Source: an uncultured bacterium (lineage in GTDB: Bacteria > Chloroflexota > UBA5177 > JANWHV01). Taken from it: DNA of 64,000 bases. Positions 35,308 through 40,638 of this stretch are shown piece by piece. The stretch lies in NCBI GenBank assembly GCA_963827235.1, contig CAWHAE010000012.1, forward strand, positions 672,001 through 736,000, read 5' to 3'. Position numbers and translations under genes: made by a program. A model generated the notes under the pieces. That model was not told where the DNA came from, did no database searches, and saw nothing but the letters and a program-made list of their open reading frames with translations. How positions within the stretch are numbered: position 1 is the first letter of the stretch; every line of letters begins with the position of its first letter.

Positions 35308-36138
35308 ATGGTAGGCGAGAATTCCGCGCTCTACGGCTTCAGTCCTCTAGCTGCCGGCTCGGCGGCCGCGTTCAGGCTGCGCGCGGCGGCCGACCGCTTG
35401 GCTCGGTATCCCTTGCTCAGCGCCATGCTCAGCGTGGCGAGCTTCGCGTTCTTGGGTCCGGTGGCAGCACTGATTCTGGTGGCCACGATCCTCGATCATG
35501 AGTTCGCCCATCGCTACATGATGCGCAGGCTGGGATATGCGCCGGGGCCGGTGAAGCTGCTGCCCATTATCGGCGCCTACGTACGGGCAGGCAGGCCGAT
35601 GTTATGCAGCGCGGACATCGCGCTGATCTACCTCGCCGGGCCGGTTGCCGGTATCCTGAGCGCTGAGTCGGCGGCCTTCGTGGCGTCGAAAACGTTGGCG
35701 GCGGGCATAGAGCAGCAGGTGTTCATCGGCGCGGCAGTGGCGATTGGCTTGAACCTGGTCAATCTCTTGCCCTACGAGCCGCTCGACGGTGGCTTGATCA
35801 GCCGCGCTCTACCGTATCCCGCCCTGCTCCTCTTCCCGGTGGGGCTGGCGGCATGGCTGTTTCAGGCCGGTTTGCTCGCGACGCGGGGCGGCGGCATGAC
35901 TATCGCTTTTGCCGTTGTGGTTGCCATGCATCGCGTGAACAAGTGGCGGCAGTACGCCCGAGGCCTGCGTGCGCGCATGGACGAAGGTGATACGGTCGCC
36001 CTCCAACAGTGGCAGCTGAGCTTCAACGTCCCTCTGGCGATCCGGATCCTCGTGGCCTGCGTCTACGGCTTGACGATCATCGGCGGGGCGGCGATGTTCG
36101 TAAACGTGGCCGCGGTCGCTTACCAAACCGTTCCTTGA
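35308..36138 (+). CDS. Site-2 protease family (M50) membrane metalloprotease
   Basis: HEFAH zinc motif, AGP, NLLPYEPLDGG; multiple TM segments. Confidence 0.85.
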   Translation: MVGENSALYGFSPLAAGSAAAFRLRAAADRLARYPLLSAMLSVASFAFLGPVAALILVATILDHEFAHRYMMRRLGYAPGPVKLLPIIGAYVRAGRPMLCSADIALIYLAGPVAGILSAESAAFVASKTLAAGIEQQVFIGAAVAIGLNLVNLLPYEPLDGGLISRALPYPALLLFPVGLAAWLFQAGLLATRGGGMTIAFAVVVAMHRVNKWRQYARGLRARMDEGDTVALQQWQLSFNVPLAIRILVACVYGLTIIGGAAMFVNVAAVAYQTVP

Positions 36139-36163
36139 CAACCGTGCGGAGGGCTGGTACGGT
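36135..36163 (+). promoter_or_regulatory. Sigma70-type promoter for microprotein 1 / amtB
   Basis: TTGACA-17 nt-TACGGT with an extended TG. Same architecture as the promoter at 38561. Confidence 0.65.
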
Positions 36164-36220
36164 TAACAGAAGGGGAGCGGGCACAGCGCTTTGGTGCATG
36201 TTTCCCCGAAGGTCTGGCAC

Positions 36221-36258
36221 AGGCGCCGTTCGTCGATACGACGAGGGCGCTTTGTATT
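36221..36258 (+). terminator. Intrinsic terminator-like hairpin (attenuator in the leader, or terminator of the M50 gene)
   Basis: AGGCGCC-G-TTCGTCG-ATA-CGACGAG-GGCGCTT stem (~14 bp) followed by TGTATT. Confidence 0.55.
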
Positions 36259-36315
36259 AATCTGGCGGCGTTGCCAACTCCCTCCGGCCCTCCGATCCGA
36301 GTGGCCCCTATCCGT

Positions 36316-36351
36316 GGCTCGGCGATTGAGCCAAGGCGCATTGCTGCACGG
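36316..36351 (+). ncRNA. Conserved leader motif copy 1 (candidate cis-regulatory RNA)
   Basis: GGCTC-7nt-GAGCC hairpin + AAGGCGCATTGCTGCACGG; near-identical to 38754-38789. Confidence 0.55.
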
Positions 36352-36480
36352 CTGGTCGTCTCTGGTTCCGCGATTTCGGGCGACACCCACGCGCTAATGG
36401 TGGATGAGTCGCTCCGGGCCCGCGGCCGCCTACAGCACACACCGGCGCTCGCCGGTGGCTCGACACGAATAGGAGATACT

Positions 36481-36606
36481 ATGATGGCCGTTCTCGTTTT
36501 CGCCCTTTTCGCCGCGCATGTCGTCGCCTGGGTGGCTCTTCCTGATCGCAAGAGCGAAGATAGCCGAACAGTGCAAGTGCCTGTCGCGGCCCCGGCTATG
36601 GCCTGA
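36481..36606 (+). CDS. Single-TM microprotein 1 (41 aa: MMAVLVFALFAAHVVAWVALPDRKSEDSRTVQVPVAAPAMA)
   Basis: AGGAG RBS. Paralogous to 38926-39063 (identical FAAHVVAWVALP). Confidence 0.85.
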   Translation: MMAVLVFALFAAHVVAWVALPDRKSEDSRTVQVPVAAPAMA

Positions 36607-36887
36607 TCCGGAGACGGCAAGCCTTCTATCTCTGGTGCCGGGAGCGAATCATATGCGGCAGAGCGGCACGGTCTATCCGTAGCGCCCTCGTCGCGCGGGT
36701 CGTGCCGCCGCCATTTCGGCAGAGCGCGGCAGCCGGTCCCGGCTGAGCATGTCCGGCCTTTGCTCCGTGCGGCCATTCTGATGGCCGGCTCGGTGCGTCA
36801 TTGGGTGGACTTCTCAGAACATCATCCTGCGTGGGACCGTCTGGACGGACGGATCCCGCATTGTAGTATTTTGGAGCAGATTCGCCG

Positions 36888-38249
36888 ATGAAGCGCATCC
36901 CTCTGCTAATCATGGCGGCAATGGTCTTCGGCTTCTCCATGGGTGCCTTGCCGAACGTCGTCCATGCCGCGACTGAGGCTGCTACCCGAGTTGCCTCGCA
37001 CGCCAGCGCATCGCCGCCGTGGACGCCTAGTGCCGGCGATACATCTTGGGTACTGGTATCGGCAGCGCTCGTCATGCTTATGACGCCTGCCCTCGGCTTC
37101 TTCTACGGCGGTTTGGTCCGTCCGAAGAATGCCCTGTCCACCATCATGCACAGTTTCTTCATTCTGTGTTTGATCAGCGTGCAGTGGGTACTCTGGGGTT
37201 ACTCGCTGGCCTTCGGTCCTGACCATGGACACCTCATAGGAGGTCTCGACTGGGCACTATTGAAGAACGTGAGTGCCTACAAGCCGGATCCATTCGGCTA
37301 TGCCCCGACTGTTCCTCACCAGGCATACATGGTCTTCCAGATGATGTTTGCGGTGATCACGCCGGCATTGATCACGGGTGCCTTCGCCGAGCGAAAGCGG
37401 TTCAAGGCCTACGTGTTGTTCAGCCTGCTGTGGGCGACGTTCATTTACGATCCTCTCGCTCACTGGGTGTGGGGCTACAACGGTTGGCTGCGCAATCTCG
37501 GCGCCCTGGACTTTGCCGGTGGCAGCGTCGTGCACATGAGTTCCGGTATTTCCGCCATCGTGGCAGCCAAGATGCTGGGTCCGCGTATTGGACTCGGCAA
37601 GGAGAAGATGGAGCCGCACGACGCGACGTACGTCGTGCTTGGCGCTTCACTGCTGTGGTTCGGCTGGTTCGGCTTCAACGCGGGTAGCGCGGTGGCTGCC
37701 GGAGGTCTGGCGACTTCGGCATTCGTGGTGACGAACACGGCAACGGCCATGGCTGGCCTCACATACCTGACGGTGAGCTGGTGGCACAAAGGCCAGCCGA
37801 GCGCGATCGGCGCTGCCGTGGGCGCGGTATGCGGCCTGGTCGCCATCACGCCGGCCTCCGGTTTCGTCGATGTCAGCGGCTCCGTGCTGATCGGTATCGG
37901 TGCCGGCACGATCTGCTACTTCAGTGGGCAGCTCAAGAACCTTATCAAGGCCGACGATGCACTCGACGTGTTCGCTTGCCACGGCATAGGCGGCACTTGG
38001 GGCGCCTTCGCAACCGGCATTTTCGCCACGACCGCCATCAACCCGGCCGGCTCCGGCGTGGTGGATGGGCACTGGCAGCAGATGCTCTACCAGCTCGCCG
38101 ACATCGGGGCCACGTGGGCGTACGCCGGCATCGGCACCTTTATCCTGCTCAAGATCGTCAACGCCGCGGTGGGACTGCGCGTGGACGAACGTGAAGAAGT
38201 ACTGGGTCTGGACGTGTCGCAGCACGGCGAGGCCGCCTATGGTATCTGA
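36888..38249 (+). CDS. amtB: Ammonium transporter
   Basis: LVMLMTPALGFFYGG, FQMMFA, DFAGGSVVH, LWFGWFGFNAGS, DDALDVF..HG and GLD..HGE.AY motifs; N-terminal signal peptide. Confidence 0.98.
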   Translation: MKRIPLLIMAAMVFGFSMGALPNVVHAATEAATRVASHASASPPWTPSAGDTSWVLVSAALVMLMTPALGFFYGGLVRPKNALSTIMHSFFILCLISVQWVLWGYSLAFGPDHGHLIGGLDWALLKNVSAYKPDPFGYAPTVPHQAYMVFQMMFAVITPALITGAFAERKRFKAYVLFSLLWATFIYDPLAHWVWGYNGWLRNLGALDFAGGSVVHMSSGISAIVAAKMLGPRIGLGKEKMEPHDATYVVLGASLLWFGWFGFNAGSAVAAGGLATSAFVVTNTATAMAGLTYLTVSWWHKGQPSAIGAAVGAVCGLVAITPASGFVDVSGSVLIGIGAGTICYFSGQLKNLIKADDALDVFACHGIGGTWGAFATGIFATTAINPAGSGVVDGHWQQMLYQLADIGATWAYAGIGTFILLKIVNAAVGLRVDEREEVLGLDVSQHGEAAYGI

Positions 38250-38560
38250 TCTCGCTTAAGCCTCGCAGGCGACGTGAGTTCGCCGTGCCGCCACTGCAGT
38301 CTGGCACTCGACCTCCCGCGGGCATCCAACCTTTAAGTGAAGGTGGGTTGCGATCGCGGGAGGTCGTCGCGTCTGAGGTCGTGAACAAACGTCCGGCATC
38401 GCACTGCCAAGCGCCGTGGCACATAGGGCGCGCAGCACATCTACCCGCCCAGGTGACTGCGAACAAATGCGGCTCGCCCCTACTCGGGCCGGCAGGGCGT
38501 CGCGGCGTGCTTTCGGCAGCATACCTCGCGACCACCCTGCGGACTGGACCATTCCTGTGG

Positions 38561-38589
38561 TTGACACCCCCTGGGGGCTTTGGTACTGT
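38561..38589 (+). promoter_or_regulatory. Sigma70-type promoter for microprotein 2
   Basis: TTGACA-17 nt-TACTGT with an extended TG. Confidence 0.65.
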
Positions 38590-38753
38590 GACTGCATCCG
38601 GCCGGGCATAAGGTGCCTTGGCCCGAGGGACCGGCCTGGAGTGCCGGTGTATCCGCAGCGCGCGTAGGAAGGGGGCGGTGGCCGGTCAGTCTCTTGGCGA
38701 CGTAGCCATGTATGCTTGGCCTGCCGCGAGAGTCGGCCGGCCCGGCAAGTCAA

Positions 38754-38801
38754 CGCTCGATGTTGGAGCGAAGGCGCATTGATGCACGGACCCTTCGGGG
38801 T
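38754..38801 (+). ncRNA. Conserved leader motif copy 2 (candidate cis-regulatory RNA)
   Basis: CGCTC-7nt-GAGCG hairpin + AAGGCGCATTGATGCACGG, then an ACCC-TTCG-GGGT (UUCG tetraloop) hairpin. Confidence 0.55.
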
Positions 38802-38925
38802 TGCTCGGTCGTAGTGGACCGGCAGTTGTGTGCCAGGATGGCGCGCAATCCCGTTTGTTACTCGCACATGTATTGCACGTTCGCCGGCGGGTTCCGGCGG
38901 ACCGACACATGAAAGAGAACGCACA

Positions 38926-39063
38926 ATGGCCGCTATCGTGTTCATAGCTTTTGCCGCGCACGTCGTGGCGTGGGTTGCACTCCCCGGCAGTAAGGTCACC
39001 ACCAAGGTCGTGCGGTCTGAGGCCGCACCTGCCCCAATCGTCGCCGTTGCGGCAACCGCGTAA
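38926..39063 (+). CDS. Single-TM microprotein 2 (45 aa: MAAIVFIAFAAHVVAWVALPGSKVTTKVVRSEAAPAPIVAVAATA)
   Basis: Purine-rich GAAAGAG upstream of ATG. Paralogue of 36481-36606. Confidence 0.85.
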   Translation: MAAIVFIAFAAHVVAWVALPGSKVTTKVVRSEAAPAPIVAVAATA

Positions 39064-39654
39064 GTGCGGCAGGTGCACGCGCGTATCCTGCAGGATCCCG
39101 TCCTACCAAGAGGGGCGGGCTTGTAGCGCACGTCAACACCCTGCTCGACGCCGAATGAGGTAATCTCCGCGTAGATATCGCCTGCACACGGCACGGAGTG
39201 TCGTGTGCAGGCGATAACGCGTTCTCGGCCTGCGGGCGACCGCTGCGAACGACAATATGGAAGCGCGGCCGCACAGAGTGCCTCGTGTGGCGGAATTCGT
39301 GGCACATTTGAGGCTGTACGAGTACGCTTTGCGTGTATCGCTCAGCCATTCGGGGGAGCAGCGGATCTGCCCAGACTGCGATGCTTGATCTGTCGGCTTC
39401 TGCTCCAATCGATCGGGTCTCGATTGCTCCAGGGCCGGCTTCCCATTTCCGGAGCGTCCGCTGTGGCGGCGCGCCACGCACTCGACAACGATCGACCGCT
39501 AGAATCAGTACGGCATATGCGCCGTGGCGGCGGTGCGGCAAGTAGTGACATTGCCCGGATGGCGCCGGCCCGCGGCCTCGACGCCGAAGCCCGGAGCCAG
39601 GGCACGGGTGCTACTGCCCGACGGCCGTGAGGGCGGTATGCCCGCGGAGGGTTA

Positions 39655-40638
39655 ATGGGTCTCGCAGGTGACACCCGAGCGGGGGTCAGACTGGCGCTGC
39701 GCGCCTTCTACAAGTTCAACAACGACTGGACGCTCAACCTCGCGGCCATGGTTGCGTACAACGCGCTTACTTCGTTCTTCCCGCTGGCGCTGGCGCTGAT
39801 CACCATCCTGGCGGCGGTGCCAAACGTAGCGGGCAGCCGGGATGCCGTGGCGAGGCAGCTGTATCTGATCCTGCCCTCGGACATTCAGTCACAGATCAAC
39901 ATCAGCAATGCGATCGCGCAGGTCAACGATCGATCGCTTCTACTCACGGTAGTCAGCATCGTGGGACTGCTCTGGGGCGGCAGCAACCTGTTCGGGTCGA
40001 TTGAAAGCGCGTTCGCGATCATCTTCAGAGTGAAGACACGTGACATCGTGCCGCAGAAAGCGATGGCGGTCGCCATGATCGTGGTGCTGGCCGTGCTCCT
40101 GCCCCTGTCGTTCATCTCTACATTCCTGGTCAGCGCGGCGACCACGACGCTGGGGAGGATACTTCCGTCTTACATGAACGGACCGCTGGCGGTAATCGTG
40201 GGTCTGTGCACGAGCTTCGCCGCGCTGTTTGTGCTGTTCTTGCTCATCTACACAACGGTGCCCAATCTGCCGATTCACTGGCGTTATGCCTGGCGAGGCG
40301 CACTGTTGGCGGCCGCGGTCATGACGGTTGTGAACAGCCTCTTTCCTGCTTATGCCGCCCATTTCCTGGGCAGCAGGCAGTACGGCACGGCTGCTCTTGC
40401 CACGGCGATCATTGCCATCACCTGGTTCTGGTTCTTTTCCGTCGTGTTGCTCGCGGGAGCGCAGGTGAACGCACTGCGCATGGGCATCGGCCATTGGCGC
40501 TACGATCTGCCTCGCACGCTGATGGACCAGAATATTCCGACCTTGGACGGCGCGCCCACGGCCATGGCCGCACTGCAGCAGTCGCGCGATGCCGATGTAT
40601 TCGATACTCCGGTGGGAATCATGCGAGACAAGCCTTAG
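39655..40638 (+). CDS. YihY/virulence factor BrkB family membrane protein
   Basis: AAMVAYNALTSFFP, LIYTTVPN, YG..A..I..WFW..SVVLLAGAQVN pattern. Confidence 0.9.
   Translation: MGLAGDTRAGVRLALRAFYKFNNDWTLNLAAMVAYNALTSFFPLALALITILAAVPNVAGSRDAVARQLYLILPSDIQSQINISNAIAQVNDRSLLLTVVSIVGLLWGGSNLFGSIESAFAIIFRVKTRDIVPQKAMAVAMIVVLAVLLPLSFISTFLVSAATTTLGRILPSYMNGPLAVIVGLCTSFAALFVLFLLIYTTVPNLPIHWRYAWRGALLAAAVMTVVNSLFPAYAAHFLGSRQYGTAALATAIIAITWFWFFSVVLLAGAQVNALRMGIGHWRYDLPRTLMDQNIPTLDGAPTAMAALQQSRDADVFDTPVGIMRDKP

Follow-up and report, generated by a model that had tools for sequence, protein, structure and literature searches.

A conserved hairpin motif in the long leaders of microprotein and ammonium transporter genes in one genus of uncultured Chloroflexota

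Here we describe a short motif that occurs twice in a 64,000-nucleotide stretch of DNA from an uncultured bacterium of the Chloroflexota (contig CAWHAE010000012.1, positions 672,001 to 736,000; the whole stretch is called the window), each time within the long 5' leader of a gene for a microprotein, the first of these genes being followed by an ammonium transporter gene (amt). Judged from the alignments of homologous leaders, the motif is a genuine island of selective conservation within a long leader, confined to a single genus and without a counterpart in Rfam. The explanation that we favour, with a confidence a little short of even, is that the motif is an RNA-level element of the leader, most likely a protein-binding hairpin set of the ANTAR type. 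Should the motif prove to act as RNA, it would reveal how ammonium uptake is controlled after transcription initiation in a little-studied uncultured lineage, and would either widen the accepted shape of ANTAR targets or add a new class of leader. It would also mark the microprotein-amt pair as a regulated unit, with a small reach, namely five copies in one genus.

The motif and its conservation

Copy 1 (36316-36351; all features described here lie on the + strand of the window) reads GGCTC-GGCGATT-GAGCC-AAGGCGCATTGCTGCACGG and copy 2 (38754-38789) reads CGCTC-GATGTTG-GAGCG-AAGGCGCATTGATGCACGG, exactly as an earlier, sequence-only reading of this stretch had placed and spelled them. In each copy a hairpin, H1, is followed by a 19-nt tail that holds a mini-hairpin, H2. 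In copy 1, H1 is GGCUC-GGCGAUU-GAGCC (36316-36332; seen in the sequence, the alignment and the RNAalifold prediction) and the tail (36333-36351) contains H2 as GCGC-AUUGCU-GC(A)C at 36336-36349; in copy 2, H1 is CGCUC-GAUGUUG-GAGCG (38754-38770; seen in the sequence and the alignment) and the tail (38771-38789) contains H2 as GCGC-AUUGAU-GC(A)C at 38774-38787. The two copies show a G-C to C-G swap at the base of the H1 stem, unlike 7-nt loops and tails that are identical at 18 of 19 positions, all of which the sequence-only reading had seen correctly, together with the ACCC-TTCG-GGGT block at 38790-38801 and the GGTCGT word that comes after both copies (36355-36360 and 38807-38812). Its distances hold as well: the motif lies 130 nt (copy 1) and 137 nt (copy 2) before the start codons of the two microprotein genes, at 36481 and 38926, and 153 and 165 nt, respectively, behind a promoter. 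When the window was scanned with the tail pattern AAGGCGCATTGMTGCACGG, allowing up to three mismatches, exactly two matches were found, namely copies 1 and 2, against a mean of 0.03 matches in the shuffled window, and two matches were reached in none of 100 shuffles.

The conservation becomes clear when the leaders are compared across the genus, which comprises the window genome (G000; a 7.98-Mb assembly of 21 contigs, with a completeness of 95.9% and a contamination of 9%) and four other genomes (G001 to G004), copies within a genome being called c1 and c2. The motif is present five times in three of the five genomes, with two copies in G000, two in G001 and one in G002; it is absent from G003 and G004, although these retain the promoter, the microprotein and amt. 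In the alignment of five leaders, 64 of 359 columns are invariant, and 22 of these fall within the 37 columns of the motif, the best such interval of the alignment. Paralogous leaders are 42-45% identical overall compared with 75-81% in the motif; for the two leaders of the window the figures are 42% outside the motif and 81% inside it, in keeping with the earlier remark that the other parts of the leaders have diverged.

The place of the motif behind the promoter is also conserved. Promoter 1 (TTGACA-N17-TACGGT, 36135-36163) has a -35 box that overlaps the stop codon of the gene upstream of the first unit, which encodes an M50-like peptidase, and promoter 2 (TTGACA-N17-TACTGT, 38561-38589) was recognised from the sequence and from the alignment of the leaders. 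The pattern TTGACAN{17,18}TAMKGT has two matches in the window, these two promoters, and 0 of 100 shuffles reach two; the same type of promoter precedes 7 of 7 homologous leaders, with the hexamers kept and the spacer varying, and the distance from promoter to motif is 153-165 nt in all five copies, the leaders of the microprotein-amt units being about 320 nt long. Across the genome, TTGACA-N17/18-TA(C/A)(G/T)GT has 15 sites compared with one in the reversed control, which argues that this is a real promoter class. The reality of the class, taken with the conserved hexamers, favours a motif that lies inside a transcribed leader.

The hairpins of the motif carry a few compensatory changes. H1 is kept as GCUC-N7-GAGC in five of five copies, its base pair being G-C in two, C-G in two and broken in G002, and the compensatory change that the sequence-only reading had proposed for this stem was borne out by the alignment of homologues, as one covarying pair. 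Between the orthologues G000 c2 and G001 c2, the H1 stem is identical and four of the seven loop bases differ. Given the motif alone, RNAalifold predicts H1 plus the mini-hairpin H2. Further 3', a hairpin H3 (CGGUC-GUAGUG-GACCG, 38806-38821), which includes GGTCGT, is kept in G000 c2, G001 c2, G002, G003 and G004 with 96% of the alignment cells paired, and a hairpin H4 (38825-38859) has an 11-bp stem in G000 c2, where it is followed by CCCGUUUGUU and looks terminator-like (folding -18.4 kcal/mol, z -2.57); two of its top five pairs are changed on both sides. When H2 (GCGC-hexaloop-GC), H3 (CGGUC-N6-GACCG) and H4 were aligned over these same five rows, 96.9% of the cells were paired and the covariation score was reached by 8 of 500 shuffles. 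Three pairs across the three hairpins are changed on both sides, among them the pair that closes H2: it reads C-G in three of the rows and U-A in those of G003 and G004, the two genomes without the motif. Because the rows are related and the hairpins were picked after the sequences had been read, the covariation of H2 to H4 is taken as support, not proof.

Outside the genus, nothing comparable was found. A covariance model built from the motif (R1), with which the five true copies score 48-60 bits, gave nothing above about 25 bits in a search of 150 other genomes of the phylum, and a class-wide pattern search was likewise empty beyond the genus. An exact scan for the 19-mer, with one genome per species, returned 10 matches, all of them in unrelated phyla, and since they score 22-27 bits with R1, well under the true copies, we read them as chance. 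A metagenome scan with the microprotein alignment yielded three loci, all of which end at contig ends, with no upstream leader among them. Within the window genome, the third-best match to R1 (25.6 bits) is inside a coding region and was judged to be chance, and a tail with two mismatches on contig C9 (278531-278549) has no H1, scores 15.4 bits and is probably chance as well; this tail (1501-1519 of locus L003) stands directly 3' of a promoter-like site, TTGACT-N17-TAGCAT. The search of Rfam gave zero matches at gathering score over the whole window and, for 35500-39800 with E up to 10, only three matches to microRNA models on other hairpins (E 0.08-0.5, far below the gathering scores), so that the motif has not turned out to belong to a known family; the sequence-only reading, too, had been unable to match it to a riboswitch. 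Our literature searches yielded no paper about the leader described here or the family of the microproteins.

A candidate regulator of the ANTAR type

The sequence-only reading had likened the hexaloop in the tail to that of an ANTAR target and had proposed a check of the genome for ANTAR proteins. One was found, beside glnA. It is the product of the single REC-ANTAR gene of G000, a 198-aa response regulator with PF00072 and PF03861, and the gene lies directly upstream of glnA, for a type I glutamine synthetase, in G000, G001, G003 and G004; glnA also follows it in G002. All five genomes of the genus have a member of the ANTAR family, and the 16 other genomes of the class have none. In the window genome, this locus is on contig C16 (1090-1892 of L061), with its counterparts in L062-L065.

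Published ANTAR targets are described as hairpin pairs with stems of 3 bp or more and a short linker between them, their hexaloops having an A at position 1 and a G at position 4 (A1/G4) (PMC3369931, PMC8164766, PMC8934654); the three closing pairs are given as obligatory (PMC8934654), and matches to such RNAs have been reported in front of ammonium transporter genes from other phyla (PMC3369931). The H2 loops read AUUGCU, AUUGAU (twice), ACUGUU and AUUGUU, i.e. AYUGNU. A1 and G4 are thus invariant in five of five copies, and the sole variable positions of the core are loop positions 2 and 5, which is the pattern described for ANTAR hexaloops (PMC3369931, PMC8164766). The invariant loop and the REC-ANTAR gene in the same genome are points of likeness. 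In addition, the H1-H2 linker is 3-5 nt in five of five copies and the H2-H3 linker about 2 to 23 nt in five of five rows, all within the 2-25 nt of a tandem arrangement, and a row of small tandem hairpins in the 5' leader of a nitrogen-related transporter unit resembles the dual-hexaloop leaders targeted by EutV, NasR and AmiR.

Further hairpins of this kind were seen in the leaders of the genus. In G003, the microprotein-amt leader contains a dual A1/G4 hexaloop of the canonical form, the stems being 6 and 5 bp long and the linker 9 nt; the background expectation for this arrangement is 0.0007 per 200 nt. The glnA leaders have A1/G4 hexaloop hairpins (CGCGCC-AAUGAU-GGCGCG, UGCC-AAGGAA-GGCG, and CGCGC-AUCGUA, -AGAGUA or -AAUGUU-GCGCG), which are at once followed by a conserved CCUCCGCC word, and Rfam gave no match at the five glnA loci; this word is complementary to a GGAGG ribosome-binding site about 90 nt downstream. 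In the first leader of the window, a terminator-like hairpin with a U-rich tail, T1 (UUUGUAUU; 36215-36258, folding -22.8 kcal/mol, z -3.45), has a 5' arm that can alternatively fold as UGGC-ACAGGC-GCCG (36215-36228), an A1/G4 hexaloop hairpin. T1 has equivalents in G001 c1 (z -2.72) and G002 (z -5.17), all about 100 nt 3' of the promoter, and the alternative hexaloops of these arms are ACAGGC, AAGGGC and AAAGAC for G000 c1, G001 c1 and G002, respectively. When the leaders were compared, neither copy-2 leader had a T1-type terminator hairpin or its alternative hexaloop.

Several results weigh against this explanation. Unlike the loops of ANTAR targets, the H1 loop has 7 nt in five of five copies, those of H2 and H3 having 6 nt, and most H1 and H3 loops are without A1: G4 is present in five of five for both hairpins, and A1 in only two of five copies for H1 and two of five rows for H3. 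The stem of H1 has 4-5 pairs, but that of H2 consists, in five of five copies, of two contiguous pairs, a conserved C.A mismatch and one further pair, and a stem of four pairs is found in the G004 homologue only. No terminator overlaps H2, the second hairpin: T1 comes 60-95 nt before the motif, H4 begins 36 nt beyond the tail and is followed by a U-run in G000 c2 only, and the ribosome-binding site is about 115 nt from the motif. A strict descriptor of the dual A1/G4 hexaloop is not enriched in the genome (690 matches compared with 736 in the reversed control), and no dual hexaloop was seen in five amt upstream regions from other families. As for the regulator, orthologues of the REC-ANTAR protein occur widely in the phylum (in 199 of 401 genomes, the unpublished G055 and G226 among them), and the gene is beside glnA in 0 of 30 other loci that were examined, which means that the nitrogen link rests on one genus. 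The resemblance noticed in the sequence-only reading therefore stands for the A1/G4 loop of H2 and for the presence of an ANTAR gene, and fails for the loop size of H1, the stem length of H2 and the overlap with a terminator.

Predicted stability is no help to an RNA-level explanation either. The folding z-scores of the motif alone are -0.34, 0.00, -0.85, +0.29 and -0.50, those of the two whole leaders of the window are -0.22 and -1.69, no better than shuffles, and in single sequences P1 has probabilities between 0.01 and 0.94, so that the idea of a structured, riboswitch-like RNA found no thermodynamic support. Pairing of the H1 loop with the tail in an alternative helix was also tried and rejected, as it did no better than shuffles (282 of 500). 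The covariance model that had been proposed could be built from homologues, but five copies from three related genomes, with hairpins chosen after reading, leave the covariation powerless statistically, which ruled out a statistical test.

Since key features of the family are missing, we do not class the motif among the ANTAR targets, and keep, on contextual evidence, the notion that it works like one as the leading mechanism. It can be hypothesized that the leader of about 320 nt is transcribed from the conserved sigma-70-type promoter as the 5' part of the microprotein-amt message. Small hairpins stand in a row in this leader, namely H1 with its 7-nt loop, H2 with AYUGNU, H3 (CGGUC-N6-GACCG) and H4, and the motif is the best conserved part of the row. 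This row would act as RNA, as a docking platform for an RNA-binding regulator, for which the single REC-ANTAR response regulator encoded upstream of glnA would be the best candidate. The binding of the regulator would then set the read-through or the translation of the message according to nitrogen status, and we infer both the identity of the protein and the direction of its effect. A precedent may be GnfR of Geobacter sulfurreducens, a REC-ANTAR protein that is reported to act on nitrogen genes by antitermination and is tied to nitrogen assimilation genes (PMC2995071). Geobacter belongs to a different phylum, and the nitrogen link in the present genus is the glnA neighbourhood alone. A broader claim, that the motif forms the core of a nitrogen-responsive type of leader RNA new to the literature, either a new riboswitch or a non-canonical ANTAR target made of a heptaloop and a minimal hexaloop hairpin, which switches an operon of amt and a dedicated single-helix microprotein, seems doubtful to us.

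Other readings of the motif

It is also conceivable, though we consider it unlikely, that the leader is a ligand-sensing, riboswitch-like fold, in which the tail closes a long-range helix with an upstream CYGGCR-N3-GCGCC and so encloses several hairpins. RNAalifold on the five leaders does predict this helix, with 89.4% of the cells paired, a covariation score reached by 6 of 500 shuffles and two pairs changed on both sides (pair 62/206: U-G, U-A, C-G, C-G, A.G; pair 67/200: C.C, A-U, U-A, A.A, A-U), and the lack of a match to known families makes a new class possible. However, the probability of the helix is about zero in every single sequence, forcing it costs 7 to 25 kcal/mol over the minimum-energy fold, and the two leaders of the window do not share a minimum-energy fold. 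That G003 and G004 keep promoter, microprotein and amt without the motif, and that its spread is a single genus, argue in the same direction. Among known riboswitches, those for glutamine (the glnA RNA and the Downstream-peptide motifs of Rfam) likewise occur in leaders of genes with a role in nitrogen metabolism, in some cases ahead of tiny open reading frames (ORFs); unlike these, the present region matches no Rfam family even at E up to 10.

The motif could instead work as DNA, as an operator in which a transcription factor binds the palindrome GCTC-N7-GAGC and the half-palindrome GCGCA-N4-TGC(A)C, either as a roadblock or at an unrecognised promoter. An inverted repeat with a variable 7-bp spacer and the strict identity across paralogues would fit an operator, the swap at the stem base also keeps the symmetry of the DNA, and the folding energy carries no RNA signal. 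On the other hand, about 155-165 bp separate the site from the conserved promoter behind which it stands, with another 130 bp to the start codon, the G-U pairs in H2 to H4 are strand-specific, and no -35/-10 pair stands at a fixed distance 3' of the motif, because copy 2 differs from copy 1 by a 15-bp indel between the motif and GGTCGT. A sigma-54 promoter was rejected, as the GG/GC spacing is 9 and not 10, G002 has AG for GG, and no sigma-54 DNA-binding domain (PF04552) was found in the 95.9%-complete genome. We consider an operator improbable.

Less probable again is that the tail base-pairs directly with the region around the start codon of the microprotein gene and so sequesters it without any protein. 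In leaders of the copy-2 type, CAUUG(A)UGC finds its complement in GCACAAUG at the start codon, and the minimum-energy fold of G002 pairs the tail with leader positions 326-336, which include the start codon. But the start regions of copy-1 type (CUAUGAUGG and CGCAUGAUGG) are only weakly complementary, and in four of five sequences the minimum-energy fold pairs the tail elsewhere. We would give no greater weight to a conserved RNA role that is not regulatory, e.g. in the processing or stability of the long leader. It would be consistent with the fact that no expression platform could be linked to the motif, yet old paralogues have kept the 19 nt under strict conservation, while G003 and G004 manage without the motif. 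The weakest of the proposals is that the tail begins a short upstream ORF, with AAGG as a weak Shine-Dalgarno sequence and NUG seven nt later, whose translation would modulate downstream structure: the variable N does give AUG, AUG, CUG, UUG and UUG, the indel between copies 1 and 2 is an in-frame one of 15 nt, and the differences between G000 c1 and G001 c1 are four Leu/Ser changes, all of them synonymous, but the peptides (18, 9, 11, 11 and 14 codons) are unconserved beyond 3-4 residues, G002 has AAAG for AAGG, in the homologous region the frames are unrelated, with 35 codons for G003 and 3 codons (GUG GCG UGG UGA) for G004, and the changes at Y and N are tolerated equally by G-U pairing.

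The microprotein-transporter units and other features

Behind the first leader, microprotein 1 (36481-36606; 41 aa, a single hydrophobic helix, with its homologues aligned) is followed by amt (36888-38249; Pfam PF00909, E 1.2e-120), and behind the second leader stands microprotein 2 (38926-39063; 45 aa, recognised from its ORF and homologues), with no amt following. The order promoter, leader, microprotein, amt is that of the genus, with two tandem units in G001 and one each in G002, G003 and G004. Pfam has no family for either microprotein, a protein search with the microprotein returned only four matches, and a protein atlas searched with it gave none at 0.9 or above. The family comprises proteins of about 40-50 aa with one hydrophobic helix and an AW(V/I/L/M)xLP end, and is tied to amt across the phylum. 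In seven loci elsewhere in the phylum (G170, G202, G354, G114, G278, G388 and G322), related microproteins come directly after amt, without a long leader; in the genus of the window the microprotein precedes amt, and tandems of amt, microprotein and amt occur in G001 and G388. This association of genes across the phylum suggests that the microprotein may be a partner of the ammonium transporter.

In Methanosarcina mazei, a small protein is reported to inhibit AmtB (PMC10714827). The parallel, a small protein tied to an ammonium transporter, bears on the microproteins and not on the motif. Methanosarcina is an archaeon, and the microproteins here have one hydrophobic helix and are encoded beside amt.

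Several other hairpins were predicted in the two leaders. About 25 nt 5' of the ribosome-binding site of microprotein 1 lies the hairpin CACCGGCG-CU-CGCCGGUG (36440-36457), for which RNAalifold pairs positions 308-314 with 321-327, compensatory changes included, and before the ribosome-binding site of microprotein 2 lies CGCCGGCG-GGU-UCCGGCGG (38882-38900), seen in the sequence and by RNAalifold. The extra hairpin ACCC-UUCG-GGGU (38790-38801) is found in copy-2-type leaders only, its loop being UUUG in G001 c2. Long, near-perfect hairpins lie 3' of amt (38309-38366) and of microprotein 2 (39176-39216); it is these that gave the weak matches to microRNA models, and they are probably terminators, matched by chance.

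The promoter type is also seen away from the units described here. One TTGACA-type site (contig C9, 484747) is 466 nt before an amt paralogue that is 36% identical; this paralogue was rejected as a further case of the leader, as it has the promoter type in common and not the leader. Several other sites of the type precede long leaders of genes that resemble those for secreted solute-binding proteins. Finally, in G114 and G202, which belong to another family, a conserved stretch, GCUCGUGCA..UGCCUAA, then ..GUUUUCGUG, occurs about 100 nt before amt and is possibly a separate leader element.

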